Part shown: positions 19,851 through 52,072 of the stretch, piece after piece
Numbering within the stretch: position 1 is the stretch's first letter
Layout: each line of letters starts with the position of its first letter
Source: an uncultured Bacteroidota bacterium
GTDB lineage: Bacteria > Bacteroidota > Bacteroidia > 2-12-FULL-35-15
DNA: 52,137 nt
Direction: 5' to 3'
NCBI GenBank assembly: GCA_903870175.1
Contig: CAIQBY010000409.1
Span: 1 to 52,137 of the forward strand
Translations under genes and position numbers: made by a program
Notes under the pieces: generated by a model
What the model was told of the DNA's origin: nothing
Seen by the model: the letters and a program-made list of their open reading frames with translations, nothing else
The model's database searches: none

Positions 19851-22800
19851 CTAACGAATAAGAGAAATATTTCCCTTCTTGGCAACGGTATTTTTATTTT
19901 CGAGAGTGGCAGTTATATAATAAACGAATACCGCAGGATCCAATTGTTTTCCTTTGTATGTTCCATCCCAACAAAATTCAGGATCAGTAGATTGAAATAC
20001 CTTTTCTCCCCATCTATCGAATATAAATATTGTAAATTCAGAAATGCAATAGTTCCATCCTTGTAAACAAAATTCATCGTTATATCCATCGCCATTTGGA
20101 GAAAATGCATTAGGAACCTGTAAATCTTTATCGGTCGGACAGGGTATCTCCACAAGCACCTTCGCACATGCCGTATCAGTGCAATTATTAGTATCCTTCA
20201 CAGTAACGCAATACAAGGTAGTTAAAGTTGGCGATACAATTATAGAATCTGAAGTTGCACCATTACTCCAAAGATAACTTCCACCGCCACCTGCAAAAAT
20301 TGTAGCAGAACCACCTAAGATTATTACACTATTTGGTCCTGCAACAGCAGTAGGCCCTCCGCTTGCACTCACTAAAACTGTTGCAGAGTTAGTGCACCCA
20401 TTTGATGGATCGGTAACGGTTATTGTATAAGTCCCTGCTGCACTAACTGTTGGTGAAGATGTAGTGCCTCCGGAAACAATTCCCGCACCAGTCCAGTGAT
20501 ATGTAACTCCAACAGTTGTTGAAGTAGCGCTGATGTTTCCTGTTTGGTTATTGCAACTAATTGAAGCGGGTGCACCTGGTGTAACGTTTGGAGGAGTATT
20601 GTTATTTGTTACAATAACTGTTGCCGTATTTGTACATAAACTAACAGGATCAGTAACGGTTACTGTATATGTTCCTGCAGCATTTACCAAAGGAGTTGTT
20701 GTAGTTCCACCGGAAATAATTCCTGAACCTGCCCAACTGTAAGTTACTCCTGCTGTGGTTGAACTTGCACTTATAGTTCCACTTGTTATTGTACAATTTA
20801 ATGATAATGCTGCACCACCAGTAACTGCAGGTATGGAATTGTTGCTTGATACATTTACTGATGCTGTACTTACACACCCGTTACCAGGGTCAGTAACTGT
20901 AACTGTATATGTTCCAATTGCATTAACTGTTGCAGCAGATGTTGCTCCTCCTGCTGTAATCCCTGCACCTGCCCAGTTATAAGTAACTCCAGCAGTTGTA
21001 GAACTGGCACTTATAGTTCCACTTGTAGAAGTACAAGTTAATATCAAAGGTACACCTGAAGTTACATTCGGAGGATTGTTATTGTTTGTTACATTCACAG
21101 TAGTTGAATTAAGACAGCCTGTATTGGGGTCTGTAACAGTTACTGTATATGTTCCTGCCGCATTCACTGTTGCCGTTGATGTACTTCCACCTGCTGTAAT
21201 ACTCCCTCCTGCCCAGCTATATGTTACTCCTGCGGTTGTAGCACTGGCACTAATTGTTCCGCTGATTACGGTACAGTTCAAAGCCAATGCCGCACCGGCA
21301 GTAACATTTGGAACAGCACCAGTATTGGTGACAACTACTGTAGCAGTATTTGTACAGCTTGTACTTGGGTCGGTTACAGTTACGGTATATGTTCCTGCAG
21401 TATTTACGGTAGCTGTTGAGGTAGTTCCTCCTGCTGTAACATTTGGTCCGGTCCAGTTGTATGTAGCTCCGGCAGTTGTTGAATTTGCAGTAATGTTTCC
21501 ACTTGTAGTTGTACAATTCAATGCTAATGGCGGACCTCCGGTTACGTTTGGCTGAGTTCCCGAATTAGTAACACTTACTGTTGCTGTATTAGTGCATCCA
21601 TTACTTGGGTCTGTTACAGTTACTGTATATGTGCCTATTGCATTTACGGTAGCAGTTGAAGTAGTTCCTCCAGAAGTAATCCCTGCTCCCACCCAGCTAT
21701 AGGTTACCCCGGCAGTAGTTGAACTTGCCGAAATATTTCCGCTTGCAGTGGCACAATTCAAAACTAATGGAGCACCTGCTGTAACATTTGGCAAAGTGCC
21801 AGAGTTAGTAACATTTACTGTTGCACTATTAGTACAACCATTGCTTGGGTCGGTGACAGTTACCGTATAAGTACCGGCTGTATTTACTGTTGCAGTTGAA
21901 GTAGTTCCGCCTGCAGTGATACCAGCTCCTGACCAACTATATGTTACTCCAGCAGTTGTTGAACTTGCTGAAATATTTCCACTTGTAGTTATACAATTCA
22001 ACGCCAATGGCGCACCTGCAGTAACGTTCGGTAAAGCTCCGGAATTAGTTACATTGACAGTAGCTGTATTAGTGCATCCGTTAGCTGGATTCGTTACTGT
22101 TACAGTATATACTCCAACAGCATTTACTGTAGCCGCTGATGTATTACCACCAGATGTAATACCTGGTCCTGCCCAACTATATGTTACACCTGCAGTTGTT
22201 GAACTTGCAGAAACATTTCCGCTTGTTGTTGTACAATTCAACACCAATGGCGCACCTGCGGTAACATTCGGCAAAGCTCCTGAATTAGTTACACTGACTG
22301 TAGCTGTATTAGTGCATCCGTTAGCAGGATTGGTAACAGTTACTGTATATGTTCCTACAGCATTAACTGTTGCCGTAGAAGTAGTTCCACCAGCAATAAT
22401 TCCTGATCCTGCCCAACTATAGGTTACACCAGCCGTTGTAGAACTTGCTGTGATGTTCCCACTTGTCGTTACACAATTCAGCACTAAAGGCGCACCTGCA
22501 GTAACATTCGGCAAAGCACCTGTATTAACAACATTAGCAATTGCTGTACTGCTGCATCCTGTAGCACTTACGGTAACGGTATAACTTCCCACAGCATTTA
22601 CTGTGGCAGTTGATGTATTGCCACCCGATACTATGCCTGTACCTGCCCAACTATAAGTAACTCCTGTTGTTACAGTTGATGCGCTAACTGTTGCCGTAGT
22701 TTGGGTACAAGTTAATGAAGTTGAAGAAGTAGTAACTACAGGGCCTGCACTCGTCAATAAAACCGTATCAACATAAGGAGTACAAGTACCTGCAGGAGTA

Positions 22801-24881
22801 ATGCTTACTGTATAAGTTCCGGCACATAAGCCAGTAGCTGTTGAAGTAGTGGAACCATTGCTCCACAAATAAGTTGCTCCTACAGAATCAACTACACCGC
22901 ACTCTGTAACATAAGCCTTTGCACTTCCATTACAGGCACCGCAAGTAGGTTGTACTTTTATTTTCGTCAATGTTACTGATGGAACTGCGATTGTAAAACT
23001 CGAAACAAATCCTTGACCGGAAGCATACAACATCTGATAATTCTTCCCGAGTTTTAAATCATAAATTGTATTACTTACTGCTATTGTACTTGTCGGATTA
23101 CTTCCTGCAGCAAGCGTTGCGCCATTGTAAACACCAATCAAATGATTATGCCCTACATATAATACGTCGCAAACATCAACATCCAATCCTCCCCAGCTTT
23201 GCATTGTTGAAGCAACATTTGGCCTGTGAATCTGCAAAGCGCCACTATTCTTATTGTATTTAAACAAATCGGCACCATCAAAAAGATACAATGCTGTTTT
23301 AGAAGCAACCATACCATTAAAGCCATTCGCAGGCACAGCACTCCATGTCATATAAATTAAATCTGAACATGCTTCCGGCATAAAAGTATTTGCACTGTTA
23401 TTAAAATTAAATGTAGATGCAGTAAGTGCAGGAATATTCAGTTTAAGCAATCTGTCATCATAATTTACATTGTTATTACAACACGAGTTTGTAGAACCCA
23501 TATAACAGGTTGTGCCTGTTGGATCTATTGCCAGAAGCCACATATCGTGATATGGAAGATTGGCATTTAAGACATTTTTAGGAACGAAACCTCCTGCCGC
23601 CATAGTAGTATCCACTATGCATCCCTGATTGGTGGCACTAGTGCCACCGCCAGCGATTACCAATTGATGAGTGCAATTACTAAACGACATCCTGTCCATT
23701 TCTTCAAAATTCGTATTACCTGGAAATGTTCCTACCAGCATACCCGCATTATTAACCTTTATACACCTCGCACCTACTGGAGCAGAATTATATCCATCAA
23801 CCATATAACTTGTTCCCGTTGTGTGGTCAACAGCCAAATCTCCCCATTGCGCTGAAGGATCAGTATTAATAGTAGTTGCGTTAAACCGCCATTGTATCAC
23901 ACCTGCACTGTTAAACTTTACAAGCTGCGCCGGTCCCCATGCTCCATACGTATATACATTTCCCTGATTATCATAATCAACTTCGTAAGCCGAATTGTAA
24001 CCTCCTGTAAATACAGGGTTGGTTGTCCAAGGGTCAATTATAATTGTATTATCCTTATTATAATTTCCTTTGATTAAAAATGATTCTGTATTGTTTTTTA
24101 TTGAATAACCTATCTGCATTTTATTTCCTTTGTCATTATTGCAAACCGGCGCATGATCAGTAAATTCACCCATTTCGGTTTTTACTATTATATCTCCATC
24201 AGCATTAATAGTCATTCCTTCTGCATCCTTATATTTCAATTTTACTTTCGATATATCACCGCCACTTCTCACTATCACATTGTATTTTATACCTTCTTTG
24301 CTTTCAGGGAAAATATATTCCACATCAATATTATCGTACAAATTTTTATAGATGATTTTACGATACACATTCACCCTTATCGTTTTATCCCTGCCCAAAG
24401 GATAAGTATAATAATACTTCTCGACACCTTCTGCAACTATTGTTACATCAGCATTTGCACCTTCCCAAATTAAATTTGCATACTGCGTTTCGTGCTCTTC
24501 ATCTTCCTCTTTTCCTTTATTCCTCTCGTGCTCTTCCCGTTCTCTTTTATCTTTTGGCTGAGGCAAATCGAGATAACTATATGTTACTCCTTTCTTTGTA
24601 AAATAGGCATTTGCTTTACCAAGTTTTGCTGAATAATAAATTTCGTCCTTACTTTTTATTGCGCCATCAAACTCACCTTTATTCTCAATAAAAAGTTGGA
24701 AATCGAAAGGTTTTGTTTCCCAGTTAAGTTTATAATCTTTGTTGGATTGCGGTGGCTCCTGCTTATTATTATCAGCTGTTACGGAATTATTTATCAGGGA
24801 AGTTTGGGAAAAGGAAACGCCTGTTGCACAAAATGCTGTGAAAAAACAAATGAACAATTTGAAACGTGTATTATTATTCAT
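19851..24881 (-). CDS. Giant T9SS-secreted adhesin-like protein with a type-B (gliding-motility-associated) C-terminal sorting domain
   Basis: 1676 aa. Signal peptide MNNNTRFKLFICFFTAFCATGVSFSQ, then a ~620-aa N-terminal region, an SprB-like CxxCNGSA motif and ten 80-aa Ig-like repeats. The C-terminus VPNAFSPNGDGYNDEF...DRWGEKVF is typical of the type-B CTD. Confidence 0.9.
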   Translation of the reverse strand: MNNNTRFKLFICFFTAFCATGVSFSQTSLINNSVTADNNKQEPPQSNKDYKLNWETKPFDFQLFIENKGEFDGAIKSKDEIYYSAKLGKANAYFTKKGVTYSYLDLPQPKDKREREEHERNKGKEEDEEHETQYANLIWEGANADVTIVAEGVEKYYYTYPLGRDKTIRVNVYRKIIYKNLYDNIDVEYIFPESKEGIKYNVIVRSGGDISKVKLKYKDAEGMTINADGDIIVKTEMGEFTDHAPVCNNDKGNKMQIGYSIKNNTESFLIKGNYNKDNTIIIDPWTTNPVFTGGYNSAYEVDYDNQGNVYTYGAWGPAQLVKFNSAGVIQWRFNATTINTDPSAQWGDLAVDHTTGTSYMVDGYNSAPVGARCIKVNNAGMLVGTFPGNTNFEEMDRMSFSNCTHQLVIAGGGTSATNQGCIVDTTMAAGGFVPKNVLNANLPYHDMWLLAIDPTGTTCYMGSTNSCCNNNVNYDDRLLKLNIPALTASTFNFNNSANTFMPEACSDLIYMTWSAVPANGFNGMVASKTALYLFDGADLFKYNKNSGALQIHRPNVASTMQSWGGLDVDVCDVLYVGHNHLIGVYNGATLAAGSNPTSTIAVSNTIYDLKLGKNYQMLYASGQGFVSSFTIAVPSVTLTKIKVQPTCGACNGSAKAYVTECGVVDSVGATYLWSNGSTTSTATGLCAGTYTVSITPAGTCTPYVDTVLLTSAGPVVTTSSTSLTCTQTTATVSASTVTTGVTYSWAGTGIVSGGNTSTATVNAVGSYTVTVSATGCSSTAIANVVNTGALPNVTAGAPLVLNCVTTSGNITASSTTAGVTYSWAGSGIIAGGTTSTATVNAVGTYTVTVTNPANGCTNTATVSVTNSGALPNVTAGAPLVLNCTTTSGNVSASSTTAGVTYSWAGPGITSGGNTSAATVNAVGVYTVTVTNPANGCTNTATVNVTNSGALPNVTAGAPLALNCITTSGNISASSTTAGVTYSWSGAGITAGGTTSTATVNTAGTYTVTVTDPSNGCTNSATVNVTNSGTLPNVTAGAPLVLNCATASGNISASSTTAGVTYSWVGAGITSGGTTSTATVNAIGTYTVTVTDPSNGCTNTATVSVTNSGTQPNVTGGPPLALNCTTTSGNITANSTTAGATYNWTGPNVTAGGTTSTATVNTAGTYTVTVTDPSTSCTNTATVVVTNTGAVPNVTAGAALALNCTVISGTISASATTAGVTYSWAGGSITAGGSTSTATVNAAGTYTVTVTDPNTGCLNSTTVNVTNNNNPPNVTSGVPLILTCTSTSGTISASSTTAGVTYNWAGAGITAGGATSAATVNAIGTYTVTVTDPGNGCVSTASVNVSSNNSIPAVTGGAALSLNCTITSGTISASSTTAGVTYSWAGSGIISGGTTTTPLVNAAGTYTVTVTDPVSLCTNTATVIVTNNNTPPNVTPGAPASISCNNQTGNISATSTTVGVTYHWTGAGIVSGGTTSSPTVSAAGTYTITVTDPSNGCTNSATVLVSASGGPTAVAGPNSVIILGGSATIFAGGGGSYLWSNGATSDSIIVSPTLTTLYCVTVKDTNNCTDTACAKVLVEIPCPTDKDLQVPNAFSPNGDGYNDEFCLQGWNYCISEFTIFIFDRWGEKVFQSTDPEFCWDGTYKGKQLDPAVFVYYITATLENKNTVAKKGNISLIR
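20370..22745 (-). repeat. Ten in-frame 240-bp tandem repeats inside the adhesin gene
   Basis: The motif GG(G/A)TC.GT.AC.GT recurs at 20401, 20641, 20881, 21121, 21361, 21601, 21841, 22081, 22321 and 22561, exactly 240 nt apart. Each unit encodes ...LNC.TTSGNISASSTTAGVTYSWAG.GI..GGTTSTATVNA.GTYTVTVT.P.NGCTN.ATV.VTN... Confidence 0.95.
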
Positions 24882-27757: not shown

Positions 27758-27837
27758 GGTACGGATAACTAATAAAACGAATTTACGAATCTGTGTAAAC
27801 CGCGATTCGTAAATTCGTTTTATTAGTTATCTGTACC
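27758..27837. terminator. 34-bp-stem hairpin filling the gap between two convergent stop codons (hairpin family copy E1)
   Basis: GGTACGGATAACTAATAAAACGAATTTACGAATC (27758..27791) pairs with GATTCGTAAATTCGTTTTATTAGTTATCTGTACC (27804..27837). One G-T position, 12-nt loop, T-runs on both strands. Confidence 0.75.
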
Positions 27838-29987
27838 TATTCCACCACCACTTTCCTGTTCACCATATTTTTATGTCCATCGGTTATCTGTACAAAATAT
27901 ACTCCACTTTGCATGGTGCCTTTTTCTATTATGTATTGTTTGCCTGTGAAGTTTACTGTTTTAATTTCCTTGCCTACCACATCCATTATTTTAATGGTTG
28001 TGTTTTTTTGTTCTGAAGAAAAAGAGATGGTGGTTTGGGAAGTAAAAGGGTTTGGGGAAATGGTGATTCCTGACAATTTAGAGAGTTCTTTTATCCCTGA
28101 ATTATCTACCACATTGACTTGATATCGTATTGTATCACATCCATAAGAATTACAAGCAATCAAAATAACGGTATATGTACCTGAAATCAGATACGTATGT
28201 GTAGGGTTAACTATATTAGATGTATCTCCATCTCCAAAGTTCCATAAATAAGAATCCGCGCATGTAGAAGTATTAACTAAACTTATGGTTAATCCATCAG
28301 TCGAGTTAAAATAATATTGTGCTCTTGGCAACGGATTAACAGTTATTCTTAAGGTATCCGTTGAGTTTCCACAACGCGGATTTATTGCAGTTACAGTATA
28401 AGTAGTTGTTTGGGATGGTTTTGCTATTGGTGCTATGATGTTTGGATTGCTTAATCCGCTTGCCGGCGACCAGTGATAAGTAACTCCAGCATTTAAGGTT
28501 GCGTTCACAACTATGCTATCTCCACAATTAATTAAAGCATTTGGAAATGCCTGTACTTGAAATGAAACAACATTAATCCTGATGGAATCAATTACTCCTG
28601 TTATCGAATCTCTACCATAATATGTGGTAGAAACGGCAGGGCTTGCAATAGGGTTACTTGTATTAGCGTTGTTTAAACCTGTAACTGGCGACCATACTAT
28701 ATGAGGATTATTATGAAAATGACACAATACAAGTCGCAGGTAATCACCGCAGGGAAGATTAAAAGTATCTTTAGAAATACAAATCTCATTGGCTCCAATT
28801 GTTGGAGGATTTGGTCTAATTAAACTATCAATATCAATTAATACCGATGGAAGATAAACACCTCTTCCACTTAATTGCATATTAGTTGCATGTAAATCAG
28901 TTAAAGTATCTGCATAATTTGGGGTTATGTGATAAGGATTTGTATCCCATGGAATAGTAGCACCTTGATAATTATTATTTATAAAAGTGTTATTATTCCC
29001 ATTGATGTTTCTTGGAAAATTATTGTTTTCAAAAATATTAAAAGCGCTTTGAATAAAATTAAAATTTATGTTTGGTGCAAAATTATTACTGAAAATATTA
29101 TTATTAGCACCTGAAAAGTAAATTGTAGGAAAGAATGGGCTATAATAAATAAAATTATCGTAAAAGTTACAATGATTGCCAAAACCGTTTTCTAAGCCCC
29201 CATAAAATTTATTACCTACTATTAAACTATAAAGTGAAGAACCTAAATTAACATTCCCCCAAAATTGATTATTTATTACTTGTGCACTATCTCCACGACT
29301 CAGTTCTAAACTTAAATTTGCACTTACAGTATCTTTGTAAAATAAATTATTCACAATTACTGCACTTTCAGTATATGTTATATATATAGGACTATTTATC
29401 GAAAAAATATTAGAAGAAAAAATCGCAGGACCGAAACCATAAGCAATATCTATAGCACCGCTACAATAGCTATTTATTAATTTAATACCATAAGAATAAC
29501 CTTGCTCTATACTATTCTCAAATGAACTTTGTTTTATGCTACAATTAATAATTGAAACCAACTTTGTAACATAATCGCATTCTATTGTAATACCTGGTGA
29601 AGCAGTATTTTCAATTGTCAAGTTTTTCAAAATAAAATTGAAGTTGCTATAAGTTAAGCCAATTGTATTATATGCCCCCGTAGTCGAATTACCTCCTGCA
29701 ATTATTTTCACTTTAGATGAATCTGCCGATTCGGATTGGAAAGTAACAGAATCATTAGGATTTCCCAATGTCATGCCTCCTAGCGCGAGACCTTCATTGT
29801 AAATGCCATCCCTTATATTAAATATAACATTGCCTGAAATACCCCAATTAAACAAATCGTTTCTAGCAGCAGAAATTGTAACATAATCAGGATTAACGCC
29901 TCCAATAGTATATGTCCCGGAAAGAGGTTGTGCATTAGAAAAAAAAGAATAAAATAAAATAATAACTATTAAAGTAATTTTTCTCAT
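27837..29987 (-). CDS. T9SS type-A cargo protein: beta-helix-like repeats plus PKD-like domain
   Basis: 716 aa. Signal peptide, an Asn-rich repetitive region (NxxFxxN) and a PKD-like segment YLWNFGDGDTSNIVNPTHTYLISGTYTVILIACNSYGCD. CTD ITISPNPFTSQTTISF...GVYFVQITDGHKNMVNRKVVVE. Confidence 0.85.
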   Translation of the reverse strand: MRKITLIVIILFYSFFSNAQPLSGTYTIGGVNPDYVTISAARNDLFNWGISGNVIFNIRDGIYNEGLALGGMTLGNPNDSVTFQSESADSSKVKIIAGGNSTTGAYNTIGLTYSNFNFILKNLTIENTASPGITIECDYVTKLVSIINCSIKQSSFENSIEQGYSYGIKLINSYCSGAIDIAYGFGPAIFSSNIFSINSPIYITYTESAVIVNNLFYKDTVSANLSLELSRGDSAQVINNQFWGNVNLGSSLYSLIVGNKFYGGLENGFGNHCNFYDNFIYYSPFFPTIYFSGANNNIFSNNFAPNINFNFIQSAFNIFENNNFPRNINGNNNTFINNNYQGATIPWDTNPYHITPNYADTLTDLHATNMQLSGRGVYLPSVLIDIDSLIRPNPPTIGANEICISKDTFNLPCGDYLRLVLCHFHNNPHIVWSPVTGLNNANTSNPIASPAVSTTYYGRDSITGVIDSIRINVVSFQVQAFPNALINCGDSIVVNATLNAGVTYHWSPASGLSNPNIIAPIAKPSQTTTYTVTAINPRCGNSTDTLRITVNPLPRAQYYFNSTDGLTISLVNTSTCADSYLWNFGDGDTSNIVNPTHTYLISGTYTVILIACNSYGCDTIRYQVNVVDNSGIKELSKLSGITISPNPFTSQTTISFSSEQKNTTIKIMDVVGKEIKTVNFTGKQYIIEKGTMQSGVYFVQITDGHKNMVNRKVVVE

Positions 29988-30104: not shown

Positions 30105-30137
30105 GATTCGTAAATTCGAATCATTTGTTATCCGTAC
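30105..30137. repeat. Hairpin-family copy E2 (right-arm half only)
   Basis: GATTCGTAAATTCGAATCATTTGTTATCCGTAC matches the right arm and tail of E1 (GATTCGTAAATTCG...GTTATCTGTACC). It abuts the stop codon at 30141. Confidence 0.6.
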
Positions 30138-30140
30138 TTT

Positions 30141-31118
30141 TTAATACAACTCCACAAATAATTCAACCACTTTAGTATTGCTTACTGTAACTGCCGTGAG
30201 GAAGCGGTGTGCGGCATAATCGGTGATACCGAAATCCGACATATTTATTTTGGCTTCATGATTATTTGCCACATTTACGGCTGTGCTGTCCATACCGCCT
30301 TTGGTGCTGCTGAGGTACATAGATACACTATCGGTAGGCGTTGCATTAAACATTGCTTTTATGCGCATTATATCTGTTTCTACAAAAGTACGTTCGATAA
30401 GTACCGACAGTTCGGTTACTTTCATTTTACGTTTGAATATCGATTGCAATTTGGTACGCAGGTTCAGCAAATCGAAACAAGGTTCAATCTTTTCGGGTGT
30501 ATCAAAATATTTATCCACCAGAAATCCCATGTTCCGGTATTGCATGTTCATGGCTGCCACGCGGGCGTCTTCCACCGTTTCGCTGCCGGTGCTCTTTGAT
30601 GTTTTGCCTCCTCCCTGAATGGTGCGTGCTTTATCGAGTTCATTATATGCATCAATTACCAGCAATTTGGTGGGTGCCAAATCCGCGTTGTCGCCTATGG
30701 CAATGGTCAATGAGTTTACTGCACTTATTTTGATGTCAGTTTCTCCTGTTGTGAATGGCTTGCGGTCGCGCGGAAACAGAGCTACAAATCCGGGTGAGCC
30801 TTTTGCAAAAAACGGAAATATCATCCCCATCCACAAATCCAGCTGGGCAGGTATCAGTTTAAATAATTTTTTCAGGCTTAATGTATTGCCTTTCAGCGAG
30901 CCGCCCGCAGCTACCCAGGCATCATACGCTGCAATGTAGGGCACATGCACATCTTTGTACCTGTCGCATAATGTTGCCCAATCGGGGTCTAACGGAAAAT
31001 CGTTTACTTTTTTCTGTAAAAAAGCATAATGTGCTTTACTTAAAATTGCTGCCAGTCTGTAACTCTTTTTTGTAGCAGCCAGAAATTGGTTAGCGGCATA
31101 TTGCCATGGTTTTGTCAT
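30141..31118 (-). CDS. Orphan hypothetical protein in a GC-rich patch (no family recognised)
   Basis: 325-aa ORF with no signal peptide or TM. It is by far the longest ORF here, and the shadow ORFs on the other strand reflect raised GC. A terminator lies downstream. Confidence 0.7.
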   Translation of the reverse strand: MTKPWQYAANQFLAATKKSYRLAAILSKAHYAFLQKKVNDFPLDPDWATLCDRYKDVHVPYIAAYDAWVAAGGSLKGNTLSLKKLFKLIPAQLDLWMGMIFPFFAKGSPGFVALFPRDRKPFTTGETDIKISAVNSLTIAIGDNADLAPTKLLVIDAYNELDKARTIQGGGKTSKSTGSETVEDARVAAMNMQYRNMGFLVDKYFDTPEKIEPCFDLLNLRTKLQSIFKRKMKVTELSVLIERTFVETDIMRIKAMFNATPTDSVSMYLSSTKGGMDSTAVNVANNHEAKINMSDFGITDYAAHRFLTAVTVSNTKVVELFVELY

Positions 31119-32205: not shown

Positions 32206-33354
32206 CTAATGGCTCACCACAAATTTCCCTGCCTTGGTTTCTTTATCATCAATAAGCTGATAAAAATAAACACCGTTATTCCATTGGGTAACGTTTATTG
32301 TTGATTGATTATTGGTTATTGTTACACGTTCTATTTCTCTGCCAAGCACATCAGTAATTATTAATTGTCGATTAGCAGTGAAAGAAGAAATGGATATGGT
32401 GACGGTGGTGGTGGCTGGGTTGGGAGAAAGGGTGATGGTGGCGGCGGGGTGGGATGTTTCTTGAATATTAACTGTAGTACTACAACTTAGTGCACAACTT
32501 TGAATACATTGGCAATAAACAACAGTACTAATAATAGTACCTGTATTAAGGTCTAATCCACCTGCAGGATGCCCAGCATCACATATATCTAATATCTCAC
32601 CTGCGGTTTGTCCAATAGTTCCAGTGTTAGAAGAATATCCACCTATCGAAAAACCTCCATTACAACCACTACTGGAAATTATAAGAGCAGAATTATACCA
32701 ATCTCTAACAACGGTTACATTACTAAAAAGATAACGAAAAGTTGAACCGGTTGAATTATACCAGTCTCTTCCAACATATAGACAACCTGCATTATCAAGT
32801 ATATAGTAGCTGTTATAGGCATTATAAAAATCATAATTGATAGTCATACATCCCGTTATATTATTAATACTGCTTAAGGAATCACTTAAAAAATCACATG
32901 TAAGATTACCACCATTATCTAGACTTGAACTATCAACTACTGCCAACCTTATAGATTTAAGGCTTCCAGCGTTAACAAAATTGGAATGATTGTTTTTAAT
33001 AATTAAACTATCAATAATTGCAATTGCTGTGTAAGTATTATTAAATGATCCACCACTATCGACTAAAATATTAGAAGAATTAATAGTACCATAATTAGTA
33101 AAAATACTACCTGTACCTGTTACCCTGACTTTTGAAGAACCAATATGCCCTTGATTACAAAGCGTACCTCCGGCAACAGTCAACAAACCTGTACAAGTAC
33201 CTGTTGAAGTAATACAAAATGTATCACCCGGAACAATAATATGGTTAGCTGCATCCATTCCTGAAATAATAATATTACAAGATGTACATTGTGCAGTAAT
33301 ATTCTTACTAATAAACAGAGAAGCGAATGCAATAAATAAGAATAGCTTTTTCAT
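32206..33354 (-). CDS. T9SS type-A cargo protein, Cys/Thr/Asn-rich repetitive passenger
   Basis: The start is moved to the internal ATG (MKKLFLFIAFASLFISKNITAQ signal peptide); the listed ORF start is 33390. CTD LSPNPATTTVTISI...GVYFYQLIDDKETKAGKFVVSH. Confidence 0.8.
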   Translation of the reverse strand: MKKLFLFIAFASLFISKNITAQCTSCNIIISGMDAANHIIVPGDTFCITSTGTCTGLLTVAGGTLCNQGHIGSSKVRVTGTGSIFTNYGTINSSNILVDSGGSFNNTYTAIAIIDSLIIKNNHSNFVNAGSLKSIRLAVVDSSSLDNGGNLTCDFLSDSLSSINNITGCMTINYDFYNAYNSYYILDNAGCLYVGRDWYNSTGSTFRYLFSNVTVVRDWYNSALIISSSGCNGGFSIGGYSSNTGTIGQTAGEILDICDAGHPAGGLDLNTGTIISTVVYCQCIQSCALSCSTTVNIQETSHPAATITLSPNPATTTVTISISSFTANRQLIITDVLGREIERVTITNNQSTINVTQWNNGVYFYQLIDDKETKAGKFVVSH

Positions 33355-33405
33355 ATTGAGAAGAATTAAATTAGTAGAGATGCAAAACAAAGATAGGTAA
33401 AAGAA

Positions 33406-45359: not shown

Positions 45360-45626
45360 TTATTTCGCTCTCTCCACTACTTCAACCAGTCTCCAGCATT
45401 TATTTTTGCTGATAGGACGGGTTTCCATTATTTTAACAGTATCTCCTTCGTTACAGGTATTTGTTTCATCATGAGCCACAAACTTTGTAGTTTTGTTCAC
45501 AAACTTACCGTATTTCGGGTGTTTCACTTTACGTTCTACCGATACTACAATTGATTTGTCCATTTTGTTACTGGTAACCAAACCAACTTTTTCTTTTCTT
45601 AAGTTTCTTTCTTCCATTGTTGTCAT
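45360..45626 (-). CDS. rpsQ: 30S ribosomal protein S17
   Basis: ...[33 protein letters not shown]... Confidence 0.97.
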
Positions 45627-45829
45627 TATTTTTTCGCGTCAGCTATTTCTCTTGCACGAAGTTCTGTTTGTAATCTTGCTACTGTTTTTCTGCTGTAAGT
45701 TATTTTAGCAGGATTTTCAATAGGAGACACGGCATGGTTTAACTTTAGCTTAGCCAAAGCACCTTTTTCTTCCTTTATTCTTTCAACTAAATCTTTCAGC
45801 GAAAGTTGTTTTATGTCTGTTTGTATCAT
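45626..45829 (-). CDS. rpmC: 50S ribosomal protein L29
   Basis: 67 aa. ...[35 protein letters not shown]... Its stop overlaps the rpsQ start by 1 nt. Confidence 0.95.
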
Positions 45830-45974
45830 TTTATTTAACTAATTCTTACTCTTATTTTACAAAAACTATTATCCTGCTTCTCCTGCCAACAAAGGCAATA
45901 AAGCCAATTCTTTGTGTTTTCCTCTTTCTCTTTTTCCTGTCAAATAAAACACTCCCCTGCTTTTTTAGGGACGG

Positions 45975-45982
45975 CAAAGGTA
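45975..45982 (-). promoter_or_regulatory. Candidate -7 promoter box for the truncated ribosomal operon (TACCTTTG on minus strand)
   Basis: Plus-strand CAAAGGTA with a possible -33 TTG (plus-strand CAA at 46004..46006, 21-nt spacer). About 145 nt upstream of the rpmC ATG and downstream of the 46065..46103 terminator. Confidence 0.4.
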
Positions 45983-46064
45983 ATAAAGTAATTAATATAA
46001 ACAACAGGGGTTGAAAATATTTTTATTTTATTTAACAGATTAGAACTATTAATGCCCATAAAAC

Positions 46065-46103
46065 CTAAAAAAGCTCCTTATACATTATATAAGGGGCTTT
46101 TTT
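46065..46103 (-). terminator. Hairpin terminator separating the T9SS cargo genes from the ribosomal operon
   Basis: AAAAAAGCTCCTTA / TAAGGGGCTTTTTTT with a 9-nt loop and T-runs on both strands. Confidence 0.65.
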
Positions 46104-46140
46104 TGAAGGCTTAATTAATTGGTGTGAATTAATAATAGTT

Positions 46141-46182
46141 ACGAATTTATGAATCGAGATATACATAGATTCGTAAATTCGT
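46141..46182. repeat. Hairpin-family copy E3
   Basis: ACGAATTTATGAATC (46141..46155) and GATTCGTAAATTCGT (46168..46182), one mismatch and a 12-nt loop. The tail ...AATAATCCGTACCC then runs into the orphan CTD fragment. Confidence 0.75.
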
Positions 46183-46203
46183 TTTTAAAATAATCCGTAC
46201 CCA

Positions 46204-46308
46204 CTCTACCACCACTTTCTTATTCACCACATTTTTCTCTTCATCTGTTATCTGTACAAAAATAACTCCCCTTTGTATCTCACTTTTTTCTATTTTTTTT
46301 TGAATGGA
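46204..46308 (-). pseudogene. Orphan 3' fragment of a T9SS type-A CTD, in frame directly behind the stop of the upstream gene
   Basis: The 35 codons after the TAA at 46309..46311 read SIQKKIEKSEIQRGVIFVQITDEEKNVVNKKVVVE. This is nearly the C-terminus of the 48953..50146 product (LDLSNQAKGTYLIQITDDKKNVVNKKVVVE). Confidence 0.7.
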
Positions 46309-48060
46309 TTATTGGATAACAATCTTTTTTATTTCTATCGTATTATTCGCAGCATCTTTTATTGTTAGAAAATACAAACCATTGCCGCCCCATGTTGTAA
46401 TATCTATATAAAATTGTTGTTGGTTTATTAATGAGAAAAATACCTGCTGGCTTAATGTGTTTGTGATAATACATTTGTATCCACTCATCAAACTATAATT
46501 GCCATTATCAATATAAATATGGTCTGACGTTGGGTTGGGATATACTTTTATTGTAGTTGTATTGTTTGGCGGACTAGCGCCTGTGAGTACAGGATGAATT
46601 ATCAGAGTGTCTGTTACTGAAATAAAAGTTGTGATTGTATCATATGTGGTACAAACATTACCTGTGGTGTCATATACAATAGTGCTGATACTTGTATTGC
46701 TGCTGCATCCCGCCCCTGTAGTATAACTATAATTAATGACTTTAGTTCCCAAACCTACTGCGTGTGGATTAAATGATGAAGTTGAAACCGCACCGGAATA
46801 AGTTCCTCCGGCAGGACTTCCTGTTAATGTTATTGTAGCTGCATTATTATTAATTAAGCTGCCAATAGAGCCAAGAGTTACAACTGGATTAGGATTAACT
46901 GTAACAGTAGTTGCTGAACTTGTGGTGCTGCATGCTCCATTACTTATTACAACAGTATAATTCCCAGATTGAGTTGCAGTATAACTGCTATTTGTAAAAC
47001 CGCTTAACAAAGTACTATTAACATACCATTGATACGTATATCCTTTACCGGTATTAGCATTTAAAGTAACAAAGCCGCCTTGACAGAATGTTGTTCCACT
47101 TTGCGGAGTAATCGTTGCAGGTGGATTAGTACAGGAAACAGTATATTTAATTATATTAGTATATCCACATGCATAACCTACATTCAGACTTGGAAAACAT
47201 ATTTTTGACAATCGTGTTGTATTAGTAGCTTCCCATCCCCAAGTTGCTCCTCCGTCAATAGTCTTAATAACTGTACTTGTGTCTACCGATGCATTCCCTC
47301 CGCATATATAACCAACTGTAGAAGATAAAAATTTAATACTTGTCAATGTCTGTCCCGATGTACCGGTAGTAAATGGAGTCCAGGTGCTTCCGCCATTAGT
47401 TGTTTTTAATGCTGTACTTCCATCACCAACTGCATAACCATTGGTAGCACTTGTAAAAAACACGGAATACAATGTATTGGTTGTACCACTATTGCCTGGT
47501 GTCCATGTTGACCCGCCATTTGAAGTGTAAAGTACTGTACCATTATATCCTACAGCACATCCATTATTACTGTCATAAAAATAAACAGCATAAATAACCT
47601 GACTTGTTCCGGTAGATTGTGGTGTCCAGGTGGCACCTGCATTTGTAGTTTTCAAAATAACTCCGGGACCTCCGCATACAAATCCAATATTATTATCTAC
47701 AAAGTACAGGTTTCTTAAATCAGTAGTAATTCCTGAATTTAACGCTGCCCAATTAGTTCCCCCGTTAACTGATTTTAGAATTGTTCCGGCATTGCCGGCT
47801 ACATATATTGTATCGAGTGATGTATATTGACATTGAAATAAATCAACTGTTGTTCCCGAGGTCAAAGGAGCCCAACTTGTACCATTTGTGGTTTTTAAAA
47901 TTACTCCTCCAATACCAACAGAAATTCCAGTAGTGTTATTTGTGAAACTAATTCCATAAAGCCAGTTAGTTGCTCCACTTGTAAGCGGAGTCCATGTTTG
48001 TGAATACATTGATAATGTAAGAAACATTGCGATAATAATTGTTGTAATTGTTTTTTTCAT
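46309..48060 (-). CDS. T9SS type-A cargo protein A: Asp-box (BNR/Ycf48-like) propeller + Ig-like stalk + CTD
   Basis: 583 aa. Signal peptide, then repeated T(T/S)NGG.TW Asp-box motifs. Stalk YTVSCTNPPATITPQ...YTYQWYVN... CTD IKVYPNPTSDHIYI...GLYFLTIKDAANNTIEIKKIVIQ. Confidence 0.88.
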   Translation of the reverse strand: MKKTITTIIIAMFLTLSMYSQTWTPLTSGATNWLYGISFTNNTTGISVGIGGVILKTTNGTSWAPLTSGTTVDLFQCQYTSLDTIYVAGNAGTILKSVNGGTNWAALNSGITTDLRNLYFVDNNIGFVCGGPGVILKTTNAGATWTPQSTGTSQVIYAVYFYDSNNGCAVGYNGTVLYTSNGGSTWTPGNSGTTNTLYSVFFTSATNGYAVGDGSTALKTTNGGSTWTPFTTGTSGQTLTSIKFLSSTVGYICGGNASVDTSTVIKTIDGGATWGWEATNTTRLSKICFPSLNVGYACGYTNIIKYTVSCTNPPATITPQSGTTFCQGGFVTLNANTGKGYTYQWYVNSTLLSGFTNSSYTATQSGNYTVVISNGACSTTSSATTVTVNPNPVVTLGSIGSLINNNAATITLTGSPAGGTYSGAVSTSSFNPHAVGLGTKVINYSYTTGAGCSSNTSISTIVYDTTGNVCTTYDTITTFISVTDTLIIHPVLTGASPPNNTTTIKVYPNPTSDHIYIDNGNYSLMSGYKCIITNTLSQQVFFSLINQQQFYIDITTWGGNGLYFLTIKDAANNTIEIKKIVIQ

Positions 48061-48207: not shown

Positions 48208-48333
48208 TTACTGCACCACTATCTTCCTGTTCACCACATTTTTATTTGCATCTGTTATCTGCACAAAACAAACACCCTTTGCATAGCTGCTCATATCAAG
48301 TGTTACACTCTTACCATTCCTAATTCTTAATTC
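48208..48333 (-). pseudogene. Orphan 3' fragment of a T9SS type-A CTD gene (stop codon retained, no 5' part)
   Basis: The minus strand reads ...NGKSVTLDMSSYAKGVCFVQITDANKNVVNRKIVVQ then stop. An in-frame stop lies upstream at 48334..48336, and there is no signal peptide or passenger domain. Confidence 0.7.
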
Positions 48334-48388
48334 CTAATTTCTTTGCCACTACCTCTATTATTTTAGTTATCTTTGTAAAAAAATAATT

Positions 48389-48610
48389 ATGTACACATCA
48401 TTTATAGTTAAGGCGAACGAACTTGACGAAAAATTTTTAAAAAGCATTAAAACGCTTTTTAAAAGTAAAACTATTTCTATTACCATAGAAGACGAACCTG
48501 ATACAACTGAATATTTGCTTTCAACCGAAGCTAATCGCAAGCATTTGAAAGAATCGCTGGCAGAAGCTAAAAAAGGAAAATTGGTTAAGGTTAGTATCGA
48601 CAAGTTGTAA
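48389..48610 (+). CDS. Antitoxin partner of the YoeB-like toxin
   Basis: 73 aa. The C-terminal TEYLLSTEANRKHLKESLAEAKKG resembles the toxin-binding tail of YefM/Phd antitoxins. The stop overlaps the toxin start (TAATG). Confidence 0.7.
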   Translation: MYTSFIVKANELDEKFLKSIKTLFKSKTISITIEDEPDTTEYLLSTEANRKHLKESLAEAKKGKLVKVSIDKL

Positions 48611-48867
48611 TGAGGGAAACTTCATTTACTACCTCCGCTTTCAAACAATTTGAAAATTGGAAAACTGCTGACAAAAAAATCTATTCTAAAATTGTTGAAC
48701 TTCTTAAAGCAATTGAACAAGATCCTTTTGATGGTATTGGAAAACCGGAACCACTTAAACATTTTATTAAAGGTTGCTGGAGCAGACGAATAACTAAAGA
48801 ACACCGACTTGTATATCAAGTTAGCAAAACCAACATCATTATTATCTCCTGTAAGTTTCATTATTAA
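48610..48867 (+). CDS. yoeB: Type II toxin, YoeB/Txe family
   Basis: 85 aa. ...DPFDGIGKPEPLKHFIKGCWSRRITKEHRLVYQV....IIIISCKFHY. Confidence 0.85.
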   Translation: MRETSFTTSAFKQFENWKTADKKIYSKIVELLKAIEQDPFDGIGKPEPLKHFIKGCWSRRITKEHRLVYQVSKTNIIIISCKFHY

Positions 48868-48893
48868 CTTTTTTGTTCAGATAACCAATCTTT

Positions 48894-48934
48894 CGAATTT
48901 AGGAATCGTGATGTACTTGGATTAGTAAATTCGC
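48894..48934. repeat. Hairpin-family copy E4 (degenerate)
   Basis: CGAATTTAGGAATC (48894..48907) and GATTAGTAAATTCGC (48920..48934). The tail TTTATTAGCCTTTCGTATC abuts the stop at 48953. Confidence 0.55.
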
Positions 48935-48952
48935 TTTATTAGCCTTTCGTAT

Positions 48953-50146
48953 CTATTCTACCACCACTTTTTTATTCACCACATTTTTCTTATCATCGGT
49001 TATCTGTATCAGATAAGTACCTTTTGCTTGATTAGATAAATCTAATTCAATATTGTTTTTTCCTGTTTCAATAGAATAAATTAATTCTCCTAAAGTATTA
49101 AAAACTTTAACTGTCGTTTTTGTATTTGATTTATCATTAATCGTAATTTCGAATTTACCTTTTGATGGATTAGGATAAATTGTACAGCTAACCTTGTTTT
49201 CAATTTTATTTATTCCAGCATTTATTTCCGTAGTCTTTATTATTGTAGCATATCCGCAAGCATATCCTGCATTGAAACTAGGAAAACAAAATTTCGCCAA
49301 TCTGGTTGTATTAGTTGCTTCCCAAGTCCACGTTGTACCTCCGTCATGCGTTTTAATAATTGTACTTGTGTCGGCTGCCAAATTCCCGCCACAAATAAAA
49401 CCGGTATTAGGGGACAAAAATTTAACACTTGTCAATGTTTGACTAGATGTGCCCGTATTCATAGGAGACCAGGTACTTCCGCCATTTGTTGTTTTTAATG
49501 CAGTACTTCCATCGGCAGCCGCATAACCTGTAGTAACACTGGTAAAACAAACGCCATAAATAGTATTAGTTGTTCCGCTTGTAGCTGGATTCCAAGTTGT
49601 GCCGCCATTAGTTGTATAAATTATTGTTCCTGCTGCCCCTACAGCACAACCATTATTAATATCAGAAAAATAAATTGCATAAAGAACCTGGCTTGTTCCC
49701 GAAGATTGGGCTGTCCAAGTTGCTCCTGCATTTGATGTTTTTAAAATTGTTCCCGAACTGCCACATACAAATCCATTATTTGCATCAACAAAGAAAACAT
49801 ATCTGAGTGGCTGAGTACTTCCTGTATTTAAGGTTGTCCAAGTCGTACCGCCATTAGTAGTTTTAATTACTGTTCCTGTATTTCCTGATGCATAGACTGT
49901 GTCAAGAGCTGTATGTTGACAACAATACAAATCAATAGTTGTCCCTGAATTCAGAGGAGTCCAATTAGTTCCATTTGTGGTTTTTAAAATTAGACCGCCG
50001 ATACCTACAGAATATCCTGTATTGTCATTTGGAAAAGTAATTCCATAAAGCCAATTGGTTGCTCCGCTTGTAAGTGGAGTCCAAGCCTGTGCATTTATTT
50101 CTAACGAGAAAAATGCTGCTAAAATAATAATGTAAAGTTTTTTCAT
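48953..50146 (-). CDS. T9SS type-A cargo protein B: Asp-box propeller + short CTD
   Basis: 397 aa. Signal peptide MKKLYIIILAAFFSLEINAQ. The propeller is collinear with protein A. CTD CTIYPNPSKGKFEITI...GTYLIQITDDKKNVVNKKVVVE. Confidence 0.88.
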   Translation of the reverse strand: MKKLYIIILAAFFSLEINAQAWTPLTSGATNWLYGITFPNDNTGYSVGIGGLILKTTNGTNWTPLNSGTTIDLYCCQHTALDTVYASGNTGTVIKTTNGGTTWTTLNTGSTQPLRYVFFVDANNGFVCGSSGTILKTSNAGATWTAQSSGTSQVLYAIYFSDINNGCAVGAAGTIIYTTNGGTTWNPATSGTTNTIYGVCFTSVTTGYAAADGSTALKTTNGGSTWSPMNTGTSSQTLTSVKFLSPNTGFICGGNLAADTSTIIKTHDGGTTWTWEATNTTRLAKFCFPSFNAGYACGYATIIKTTEINAGINKIENKVSCTIYPNPSKGKFEITINDKSNTKTTVKVFNTLGELIYSIETGKNNIELDLSNQAKGTYLIQITDDKKNVVNKKVVVE

Positions 50147-50197
50147 TTTGTTTTTGTTTTTAATTGTTAATAATTATTGTTTGTGAAGTTATTGGTA

Positions 50198-51955
50198 TTA
50201 TTGTATTACTATCTTTTTCACTTCTATTACACTGTTTGCCGCATTCCTTATAGTAAGAAAGTACAATCCATGTCCTGTCCAGGTATTTAAATCAATATAA
50301 TATTGTTGCTGATTAATAAGCGTATAAAACACCTGCTGACTCAAGGTATTTGTAATAGAACAGGTATATCCATTCATCGAACTATAGTTCCCGAAGTTGA
50401 TATAAATGTGGTCGGAAGCGGGATTCGGATATACTTTTATTGTATTCGTATTGTTTGGCGGACTTATTCCTGTAAGTACAGCATGTATTATTAAAGTATC
50501 GGTTACCGAAATAAGTGTGGTGATTGTATCATAAGTGGTGCAGACATTACCTGTGGTATCATACACAATTGTGCTTATACTTGCATTGCCGCTGCATCCA
50601 GCCCCTGTGGTATAACTATAATTAATAACTTTAGTTCCCAACCCAACTGTATGTGGATTAAATGAAGAAGTTGAAACCGCACCGGAATAAGTTCCTCCAA
50701 CTGGACTACCTGTTAATGTTATTGTAGCTGAATTATTATTAATTAAGTTGCCAATATAGCCAAGAGTTACGGTTGGATTAGGATTAACGGTAACTGCTGT
50801 TGCAGTACTGGTGGTGCTGCATGCACCACTGCTTACAACAACAGTATAATTCCCTGATTGAGTTGCAGTATAACTGCTATTTGTAAAACCGCTTAACAAA
50901 CTTCCATTTACATACCATTGATATGTAAATCCTGTTCCTGTATTCGCATTTAAAGTAACAAAGCCGCCTTGACAGAATGTTGTATTTCCTTGCGGAGTAA
51001 TCGTTGCAGGTGGATTGGTACAGGAAACAGTATATTTTATAATTGTTCCTGTATAACCTACCGCATACCCACAGTTCCTATTTACAAAACTGCATCTTAC
51101 CAAACCCTGAGTTCCCGGATAACTTATTGCCCAAGTGGCGCCGCCATCTGTTGTTTTCAGAATAGTTCCTGTACTTGTCGAAAGATTAATTCCCATTATA
51201 AAACCAACTAAAGTATCCGCAAATTTCACATCCGACAGTGCATCTGTAGTACCGCTTGTAATACCCGACCAACTGCCTCCTGCTGTGGTTGTACCTCTTA
51301 TCATACCTGTTCTGCCAACAATAAATCCATTATTCACACTCGGAAAATCAAGCCCAGACATTACAGTTGTTGTTCCGCTTACTTCAGCTAACCAACTGCT
51401 GCCACCGCTTGTAGTTTTATATATTTCACCACCATAAGTACAAAAGTAACCATCAGTTGCAGAAGTAAATTTTATACCATAAATAGCATTTAACGAAGCA
51501 TTGGTTTGCTGATTCCATGTTGCGCCTCCATCAGTTGTTTTAAAAACAGAACCATAACTTGCGCCGCCACCGCCTGCATAACCTGTACTCGCGTTATAAA
51601 AAGATACATTTCGCAATCCGTCTGTTGTAAATGAAGAAACAACGTTCCATGTGCTGCCATCTGTAGTTCTCAGCACTGTACCGCCATCTCCCACAGCCAC
51701 GCCTGTTGTTGCACTTGTAAAACAAATAGAATAAAGATTGGATGAAGTATTACTTGTTTGAGTAACCCAAGTTGCACCACCATCTATTGTTTTCATTATC
51801 AACCCCGAAAATCCGCAAACGTAACAAACGCTTGGGCTAATAGCAGCAACCCCCTGCAAATAAGTTGTCGTTCCGCTATTTAATATTGTCCATGTTTGTG
51901 CATTTATTTCTAAAGAGAAAAATGTTGCTAAAATAATAATGTAAAGTTTTTTCAT
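50198..51955 (-). CDS. T9SS type-A cargo protein C: divergent Asp-box propeller + Ig-like stalk + CTD
   Basis: The start is moved to the internal ATG (MKKLYIIILATFFSLEINAQ signal peptide, same as protein B); the listed ORF extends to 52045. The stalk and CTD are nearly identical to those of protein A. Confidence 0.85.
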   Translation of the reverse strand: MKKLYIIILATFFSLEINAQTWTILNSGTTTYLQGVAAISPSVCYVCGFSGLIMKTIDGGATWVTQTSNTSSNLYSICFTSATTGVAVGDGGTVLRTTDGSTWNVVSSFTTDGLRNVSFYNASTGYAGGGGASYGSVFKTTDGGATWNQQTNASLNAIYGIKFTSATDGYFCTYGGEIYKTTSGGSSWLAEVSGTTTVMSGLDFPSVNNGFIVGRTGMIRGTTTAGGSWSGITSGTTDALSDVKFADTLVGFIMGINLSTSTGTILKTTDGGATWAISYPGTQGLVRCSFVNRNCGYAVGYTGTIIKYTVSCTNPPATITPQGNTTFCQGGFVTLNANTGTGFTYQWYVNGSLLSGFTNSSYTATQSGNYTVVVSSGACSTTSTATAVTVNPNPTVTLGYIGNLINNNSATITLTGSPVGGTYSGAVSTSSFNPHTVGLGTKVINYSYTTGAGCSGNASISTIVYDTTGNVCTTYDTITTLISVTDTLIIHAVLTGISPPNNTNTIKVYPNPASDHIYINFGNYSSMNGYTCSITNTLSQQVFYTLINQQQYYIDLNTWTGHGLYFLTIRNAANSVIEVKKIVIQ

Positions 51956-52072
51956 TTTGTTTTTGTTTTTAATTGTTTGTAAAATTATATTAATTATAGT
52001 ACTTATCCCTATGATTATTTTTTCTATATACTTATTTAATTCCATTCTATCTACTTTCTTATTTCTTTTACC

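Follow-up and report, generated by a model that had tools for sequence, protein, structure and literature searches.

Gene A of contig CAIQBY010000409.1 (assembly GCA_903870175.1), a stretch of 52,137 nucleotides (nt) from an uncultured Bacteroidota bacterium that is here called the window, encodes a type IX secretion system (T9SS) cargo protein, and a piece of a second T9SS sorting signal lies directly behind its stop codon. The 105 nt that follow this stop are probably a non-coding remnant of a type-A C-terminal domain (CTD) of the short kind found in gene B (B-type), which would derive from a separate module or gene and have been cut by a rearrangement. This remnant, relic 1, lacks the first part of the domain, begins within 6 nt of the stop codon of A and has lost residues that are invariant in its family; other orphan copies of the same module occur elsewhere, and strains differ in structure at the same spot. 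Relic 1 is a gene remnant of an ordinary kind and lies in a hot spot of recombination. Exact copies of the window's proteins occur nowhere but in metagenomes from stratified freshwater lakes; the closest genomes are metagenome-assembled ones of uncultured Bacteroidota. All genes relevant here lie on the minus strand (Table 1).

A second CTD tail behind the stop codon of gene A

Gene A comprises a signal peptide, a YCF48/BNR-type beta-propeller, an immunoglobulin-like (Ig-like) stalk and a complete T9SS CTD of its own (residues 506-582), which belongs to a different kind, the C-type. Pfam recognizes PSII_BNR (5e-22), Ig_2 and Por_Secre_tail (1.3e-7; 32 bits against a cut-off of 27 bits) in the protein. 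Minus-strand translation of 46150..48060 ends in ...EIKKIVIQ*SIQKKIEKSEIQRGVIFVQITDEEKNVVNKKVVVEWVRIILKTNLRIYVYLDS. The 35 in-frame codons 3' of the TAA (46308..46204) read SIQKKIEKSEIQRGVIFVQITDEEKNVVNKKVVVE and are followed by TGG and 17 more open codons, and a translation in this frame includes the stretches SIQKKIEK... and GVIFVQITDEEK.

An initial annotation of this DNA had recognized a second CTD tail in frame behind the TAA, and the 35 codons are indeed homologous to the end of B-type CTDs. Gene B ends in ...KGTYLIQITDDKKNVVNKKVVVE, with the tail GTYLIQITDDKKNVVNKKVVVE, and gene D in ...SGVYFVQITDGHKNMVNRKVVVE, with the tail GVYFVQITDGHKNMVNRKVVVE; both stop with TAG. The alignment with these two 3' ends that had been suggested as a check gives highly significant matches in blastn: 46139..46256 aligns with 48891..49008 of B at 80.5% identity over 118 nt (E 4e-27), and 46141..46302 with 27777..27938 of D at 76.5% over 162 nt (E 1e-30). 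Across B, D and L008, a contig from a related organism, E values range from 1e-27 to 1e-31. Over 81 nt, relic 1 is 74% identical to the tail of B. Its closest match is the tail of Q404, a 404-amino acid (aa) short gene of the propeller type on L008, with which it shares 81 of 90 nt and, over its last 56 nt, 54 of 56.

Similarity between A and the stalked gene C stops at 46308 and similarity to B-type tails begins at 46302, leaving six bases without assignable homology. The translated relic covers positions 45-75 of the 75 of Por_Secre_tail (E 0.023, 15.4 bits) and remains below the Pfam cut-off, as a fragment must. It has the features of a gene remnant, namely significant partial homology, truncation at about codon 44 of 78, and neither a start codon nor a gene body of its own.

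Relic 1 also shows possible signs of decay. The sequence EKGEMQSGVYF of the intact module reads EKSEIQRGVIF in relic 1, and the final NKKVVVE is kept. The hallmark tyrosine of the G-x-Y strand is thereby replaced by isoleucine, and three further family-invariant residues are replaced as well; among the compared copies, the tyrosine is missing only in relic 1 and in a second fragment of the window, relic 2. The ratio of nonsynonymous to synonymous differences (pN/pS) is 0.4-1.2 between relic 1 and members of the family and mostly 0.1-0.6 within the family, values that come from 29 codons and small numbers. The stop codon after VVVE is lost, as the initial annotation had stated, with TGG standing where B and D have TAG. 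The apparently intact Q404 likewise has no stop after VVVE (L008 4659..4673) and ends in VVVEWRKF*. This ending is harmless in Q404, because short C-terminal extensions of a CTD are tolerated in Porphyromonas gingivalis (PMC11285876). Thus, the loss of the TAG alone does not mark decay.

Relic 1 resembles the T9SS type-A CTD (PF18962, Por_Secre_tail; TIGR04183) in matching its last strands, including the lysine-rich NKKVVVE, and the tails of B and D are intact representatives. It differs from them in comprising only about 35 of 78 codons behind a stop codon, and is a fragment of a member rather than a functional domain: no complete domain scores above the cut-off, the fragment starts after the TAA of A instead of standing at the C-terminus of a translated protein with a signal peptide, and the conserved motif residues (the G-x-Y strand and the lysine of the last strand) are not preserved as a whole, although NKKVVVE is.

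The initial annotation had further suggested that readthrough of the stop codon, or its reversion, would equip protein A with an additional sorting signal of the B-type. This is very improbable. UAA followed by U is the strongest bacterial termination context, as established in Escherichia coli, and this is the context found behind A. Gene C and P0002 use the same TAA position as A; P0002, which is 68% identical to A and has the same propeller-stalk-CTD architecture, is the only full-length homologue of A outside the window among 5.8 billion proteins, and a protein search with A returned P0002 and C as its only full-length relatives. The stop codon is thus ancestral to the C-type module, and a recent nonsense mutation in a gene with tandem CTDs was ruled out on the same ground. 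Relic 1 is in frame, the frame stays open for 53 codons, and the tolerance of the P. gingivalis T9SS for short extensions would favour readthrough; however, the retained part of the domain cannot fold as a seven-strand beta-sandwich, its G-x-Y tyrosine and the other three invariant residues are gone, and the product would end in ...YVYLDS, 18 residues past VVVE, in a protein whose own CTD is already complete. None of the three other orphan copies examined is in frame with the gene that precedes it, and behind C and P0002 a spacer and a new gene take the place of this arrangement. The open in-frame extension is what relic 1 has in common with programmed stop-codon readthrough, which it otherwise does not resemble: the context is not leaky, neither a stimulatory element nor the arrangement itself is conserved, and the extension is decayed. 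The in-frame position carries no weight, because one third of such junctions would be in frame by chance, and relic 1 is in frame with A by chance. The only small open reading frames (ORFs) over relic 1 on either strand are chance ORFs of 20-35 aa. Protein A very probably gains no second sorting signal from relic 1.

A search of sequencing runs returned lake-metagenome DNA only, in the form of contigs, and no RNA runs; one run (X5) shared propeller fragments only. At least seven independent assemblies, produced with MEGAHIT or SPAdes from several lake-water samples, show the arrangement at the junction in identical form or at 99.5% identity, and an assembly artefact is therefore excluded. A chimera in which A was joined to another gene's tail through a repeat can be discounted almost entirely: the tail and the palindrome behind it are repeats at which contigs often break, and in one run the word depth rises from about 7 to 66 over 46164..46257, but the junction recurs at 99.5-100% identity across different samples and assemblers, contigs span from B or A through to SecY, and the junction lies outside any shared repeat.

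Table 1. Features of the window around gene A and relic 1, with genes used for comparison
Feature	Position	Strand	Description	Basis
Gene A	46309..48060	minus	583 aa	ORF list, translation, Pfam
Stop codon of A	46309..46311	minus	TAA; next base T, context UAA-U	
Junction	46303..46308	minus	Six bases, TCCATT, without assignable homology	blastn end points, alignments
Relic 1	46204..46302	minus	5'-truncated copy of a B-type CTD (about codons 44-78 of 78)	blastn, Pfam, residue comparison
TGG in place of TAG	46201..46203	minus	TAG in B and D	GAG-TGG common to relic 1 and Q404
Palindromic element E3	46141..46200	none	Member of the family found behind B and D	
Bidirectional intrinsic-terminator hairpin	46067..46104	none	16-nt arms, 94% complementary, flanked by A/T runs	Folding, repeat search
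Promoter-like region of the L29 operon fragment	45950..46060	minus	TACCTTTG at 45975-45982	Bacteroidetes -7 type TAnnTTTG
rpmC (L29)	45626..45829	minus	First gene of a ribosomal-protein operon fragment	Pfam, gene lists
Relic 2	48208..48364	minus	Orphan B-type CTD fragment of about 50 codons, between a YoeB toxin-antitoxin pair and A	
Gene B	48953..50146	minus	Propeller and B-type (short) CTD	ORF translation, Pfam
Gene C	50198..52045	minus	Stalked; followed by B after 52 nt	
Gene D	27837..29987	minus	PKD domain and B-type CTD; palindrome at 27758..27837	

Relationships of gene A and the source of relic 1

Gene A is a chimera, or mosaic, whose propeller is nearest to that of B and whose stalk is nearest to that of C. 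The propeller is 74% identical to that of B at the nucleotide level and 69% at the amino acid level, evenly along its length, and only 62% (nt) identical to that of P0002 and 52% to that of C. A switch to C-like sequence occurs at 47147-47154; at the start of the stalk 47 of 48 positions are identical in A and C, identity stays at 83-92% (nt) through about 46680, and informative sites in the stalk group A with C 60 times, against 25 and 23 for the other groupings. The last 310 nt of A, which cover the linker and the CTD, are 65-80% identical to C; C and P0002 share 88-97% there. In a rooted tree of the stalk and CTD, A branches outside C and P0002 (bootstrap support 73%), and none of six other C-type proteins is a closer donor for the divergent CTD of A, which is 73-79% identical to all of them.

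The initial annotation had explained these features and relic 1 together. In its history, an ancestral A was a short gene with a propeller and a B-type CTD, and a C-type stalk-plus-CTD segment then overwrote it from the end of the propeller to the middle of the CTD, leaving the last 35 codons behind as the former tail of A itself. The mosaic part of this proposal fits the data. The propeller of A is closer to B than to P0002 or C, the switch to C-like sequence is sharp and the informative sites of the stalk favour C, the chimera and relic 1 would both result from one event, and the identity of relic 1 to the tail of B equals that of the two propellers. A single C-derived stalk-plus-CTD cassette does not fit, because identity to C drops over the last 310 nt. 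The stalked architecture also predates A, because the propeller-stalk junction IIK-YTVSCTNPP is common to A, C and P0002.

P0002 is followed by a 55-nt spacer and then by the intact Q404, just as C is followed by B, and 49165..51049 of the window is colinear with 2556..4452 of L008 (75% identity over 1905 nt). The propeller of P0002 is nearest to that of its own neighbour Q404, as that of A is nearest to B. A propeller pattern of this kind can therefore arise without leaving a relic, because in P0002 and Q404 the spacer and the neighbour are intact, and the likeness between neighbouring propellers presumably reflects gene conversion. Relic 1 is nearer to the tail of Q404 (90%) than to that of B (74%). 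Inspection of relatives, which had been proposed to find intact versions of relic 1, yields an intact tail, which belongs to a short gene of its own; P0002 is already stalked. Orphan B-type modules without an upstream cargo gene occur elsewhere, among them the one in the unit upstream of rplB in contig L026, which stands behind a 126-aa ORF, and upstream of 46117 and 46092 the DNA of strain variants is different; both observations further count against relic 1 being the former tail of A. A history that begins with a short A is thus unlikely, and a deletion history is about three times as likely.

In that preferred history, a B-type module would once have stood directly upstream of the unit of palindrome, terminator and promoter that now appears to drive the L29 fragment of a ribosomal-protein operon. 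This module may have formed the end of a short gene that stood behind A, on the pattern of C with B and of P0002 with Q404, or it may have been an orphan already, such as the copy in L026. Starting 1-6 nt behind the stop codon of A, a deletion or replacement would then have taken out all sequence as far as about codon 43 of the module. Relic 1 would have no function of its own. The terminator hairpin probably forms the 3' end of the A transcript, which would place relic 1 and E3 within the 3' untranslated region of A; relic 1 would be transcribed there, behind the UAA and ahead of the hairpin and terminator, and remain untranslated. It would owe its good preservation to a recent origin or to gene conversion between copies of the module.

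Several observations weigh against this history. The affinity of the propeller of A to that of B is what replacement in a short A predicts, the two histories can be compared through one distant relative only, and the frame behind the stop of A is open over all 53 codons. In addition, the last 56 nt of relic 1 are better kept than old neutral DNA should be, with 96% identity to the functional tail of an organism in which orthologous coding regions reach only 62-85%. Such conservation would need a recent origin, gene conversion or a constraint at the nucleotide level.

Protein searches gave no intermediate relatives. One with B returned neither B nor Q404, and its nearest protein of the short type had 47% identity. 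Among genomes sampled at one per GTDB species, protein A matched only proteins that share the stalk and the C-type CTD (residues 300-583), with no orthologue of A, and the stalk-sharing loci in these genomes have no B-type tail at the nucleotide level. Genes B and C are 94% identical over the leader and signal-peptide codons (50079..50168 and 51888..51977, respectively), and their propellers only about 53%; the 94% stretch is a short conversion tract, and it points to MKKLY at 51955, not the ATG at 52045, as the likely true start of C.

Module copies, palindromes and the apparently split ribosomal operon

The B-type CTD module is about 230 nt long, is usually followed by a palindrome and is 85-97% identical at the nucleotide level across unrelated genes. 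The CTD of Q404 matches with this identity, over 180-235 nt, three copies in L026 and copies in L032-L038 and L040; between it and the CTD of D, which follows a PKD domain, identity is 79% (nt) and 75% (aa). Some copies stand at the ends of intact genes, and further copies in the same lake metagenomes are truncated, out of frame or without a gene body. In L026 a complete CTD directly follows the stop codon of the unrelated 126-aa ORF, in L033 a complete CTD lies out of frame behind an SBBP-repeat gene, and in L037 a 64-aa tail ORF overlaps a 281-aa gene. A scan of Joint Genome Institute (JGI) metagenomes with a 32-nt tail pattern found a single, ordinary gene end (L025).

In protein databases, the only matches to the Q404-type CTD are "CTD-only" ORFs of 49-130 aa. 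Many such catalogue entries (among them P0238-P0252) consist of B-type CTDs or their last 49 residues, starting at the internal methionine of ...IKIMDVVGKE...; most are copies of the module, orphaned or frameshifted, that were taken for genes. The C-type CTD is shared in a similar way: that of C is 95% identical (aa) to that of P0002 and 88% identical to those of LamG-type proteins whose stalks are only 67% identical.

Relic 2 is degenerate in its upstream part; its last 30 codons are open and end in a TAA and a terminator of their own, and cysteine replaces the hallmark tyrosine. The toxin gene pair next to it (48389..48867, plus strand) lies inside the cargo-gene array and encodes a YoeB-family toxin (85 aa, Pfam 2.7e-32) and a 73-aa upstream partner. 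A PIN-domain pair in L026 adjoins CTD fragments in a similar position. A joint between 46236 and 48252 reported in one run was rejected as a deletion variant; it represents a paralogous tail with a 23-nt insertion like that of P0252. At about 968..1051 of L026, a CTD fragment is split by an insertion of about 90 nt with two copies of a GC-rich hairpin (CCCCGAGGCAGAGCCTCGAGG...), which looks like a miniature inverted-repeat transposable element (MITE) and is absent from the otherwise homologous L040.

Behind relic 1 stands E3, as the initial annotation had noted that such an element stands behind intact CTD genes: its core at 46141..46182 matches the palindromes of B and D. The core hairpin of E3 (46141-46155/46168-46182) has 15-nt arms that are 93% complementary and a 12-nt loop, and 46183-46200 (GTACGGATTA...) is its degenerate outer 5' arm. 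The palindrome of D (27758-27791/27804-27837) is best preserved, with 34-nt arms that are 97% complementary, and that of B lies at 48878..48934, with its match to E3 at 48894..48933. The window contains three full copies and one half copy, the latter at 30105..30137 after the stop codon of a 325-aa gene at 30141; more copies occur in L026 and L033, and one metagenome run shows an excess of depth over the element. The outer arm GTACAGATAAC of the palindrome of D is identical to a stretch within the CTD tail (the VQIT codons), and the copy in the tail of B (48995..49006) is complementary at 11 of 12 positions to the 3' outer arm of the palindrome, 105 nt away. The motif TACRGATAAC has 16 matches against 6.5 expected; it lies in the tail and, inverted, forms the outer arm of the palindrome, and it also directly follows the stop codons of B-type genes, C-type genes and one other gene. 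The spacer after the stop of C-type CTDs (50147..50200; L008 3402..3458) is near-identical in C (TAATACCAATAAC...) and P0002 (TAATACGGATAAC...) and opens with a TACNRATAAC-like motif, as do the sequences after B-type stops.

Downstream of E3 and the terminator, the promoter-like region, a probable promoter by the known Bacteroidetes consensus, precedes L29, which is followed by S17, L14 and the remaining spc/alpha genes; L16 is absent upstream of L29. A sigma-70-type scan found fewer promoter-like sites than in shuffled sequence, a terminator scan missed this A/T-rich terminator, and Rfam, applied to the entire window at gathering thresholds, gave no family. Contigs L026-L031 carry the complementary operon fragment L2-S19-L22-S3-L16, which ends after L16. 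In these contigs, the region about 400 nt ahead of rplB contains a copy of the B-type CTD together with palindromes, a terminator and a promoter region. Window positions 46290..45950 are colinear with 1854..2221 of L026; identity is 84% over tail and palindrome and 69% beyond them. A contig with an identical L14 has the unsplit order ...L16-L29.... Judging from the window and loci L026-L031 and L039-L044, the ribosomal-protein superoperon appears to be split in this lineage, although L026 possibly comes from another organism than the window. Ahead of both operon fragments stands a colinear unit in which a B-type CTD copy is followed by a palindrome, a terminator and a promoter-like region.

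Contigs L040 and L041 are 99.2-99.6% identical to the window downstream and carry different DNA upstream of 46117 and 46092, respectively (1-200 of L040, 1-46 of L041). L040 has another CTD fragment there, beside the start of an antitoxin gene, joined at GTACAGATAA/TTTAACC, with no E3 and no adjacent gene A. This fragment and relic 1 are different remnants, because they are only about 80% identical where they overlap. Positions 46092..46117 are a strain-level rearrangement hot spot.

The tail and palindrome may instead be functional at the level of DNA or RNA, as a recombination-active or mobile 3' cassette or as a 3' mRNA structure, with relic 1 as its footprint or a working copy, an alternative that is rather improbable. 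It would account for the 85-97% nucleotide identity of the module over unrelated genes in at least two organisms, for synonymous positions (such as CAG, ATA and GTG-GTG) kept in six copies from three sources, and for the recurrence of TACRGATAAC. The L040 junction exactly after GTACAGATAA, the complementarity between the tail of B and the outer arm, and the copies at the break points of the split operon would fit as well. However, no transposase, integrase or recombinase gene lies within the 52 kb, no target-site duplications are seen, the 5' ends of the copies vary as random deletion predicts, in E3 and B the outer arms have degenerated without compensatory changes, and the motif enrichment mostly recounts tails and palindromes. 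Gene conversion between paralogous CTDs accounts for the identity, as with the CTDs of Tannerella KLIKK proteases (PMC4404884), and conversion among module copies is the ordinary explanation of the well-kept last 56 nt, the synonymous conservation and the recurrent motif. The more specific idea that module and palindrome, with TACRGATAAC at their joints, form a recombination-active and possibly mobile 3' cassette that adds, exchanges or strands T9SS signals, that the unit was recruited to drive the ribosomal fragments, and that relic 1 is a footprint of this process and not of random decay, is of similarly low probability.

Comparison with known systems

Among the systems that resemble this locus are the KLIKK proteases of Tannerella forsythia. 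Their genes are clustered, with pseudogenes among them, and carry near-identical CTDs on differing catalytic or binding domains (PMC4404884); the structure of one KLIKK-type CTD is known (PMC11285876). The B-type module likewise places one near-identical CTD on unrelated N-terminal parts. In this uncultured lake bacterium, however, the cargo consists of propeller and PKD proteins, B-type and C-type CTDs occur side by side, and numerous copies are orphaned or truncated. No tail behind the stop codon of another gene is described in the KLIKK study (PMC4404884).

The position of relic 1, a 5'-truncated module that has no start codon and lies immediately behind a complete gene of its own class, in an array prone to recombination, recalls the orphan modules of Rhs and contact-dependent inhibition (CDI) systems. 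Those orphans retain homology to the main gene, for swapping in, and carry variable toxins and immunity genes. Such C-terminal orphans, found downstream of rhs and cdiA genes, were reportedly described by Poole et al. in 2011 and by Koskiniemi et al. in 2014, both in PLoS Genet. In contrast to them, relic 1 shares no nucleotide homology with the C-type CTD of A and is only a third of a module that is a constant sorting signal.

The E3 family is a multi-copy, intergenic, imperfect palindrome (15-34-nt arms, 12-nt loop) found 3' of genes, as are repetitive extragenic palindromic (REP) or MITE-like elements. It differs from these in that its copies are so far found only beside the ends of T9SS cargo genes; no REP-associated tyrosine transposase (RAYT) or other transposase is encoded in the 52 kb, and no target-site duplications flank the copies. 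Nor does the element correspond, by eye, to an integron attC site: its outer arms (CAGATAAC and GTTATCYG) fit only the TAAC and GTTA of RYYYAAC...GTTRRRY, and the window encodes no integrase.

Relic 1 thus marks the T9SS cargo genes of this lineage as mosaics whose signal modules are near-identical and often rearranged. Stray CTD modules are scattered through intergenic DNA, enter public catalogues as "proteins" of 49-130 aa and break metagenome assemblies. The locus varies between strains and adjoins a relocated ribosomal-protein promoter, and will be suited, when complete genomes exist, to studying how secretion-signal modules spread and decay.

The window contains two more T9SS cargo genes, both on the minus strand. 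The gene at 19851..24881 encodes a 1676-aa protein with a type-B (CHU_C) signal, and that at 32206..33390 a 394-aa protein with a different type-A CTD (...GVYFYQLIDDKETKAGKFVVSH), without a palindrome behind it.

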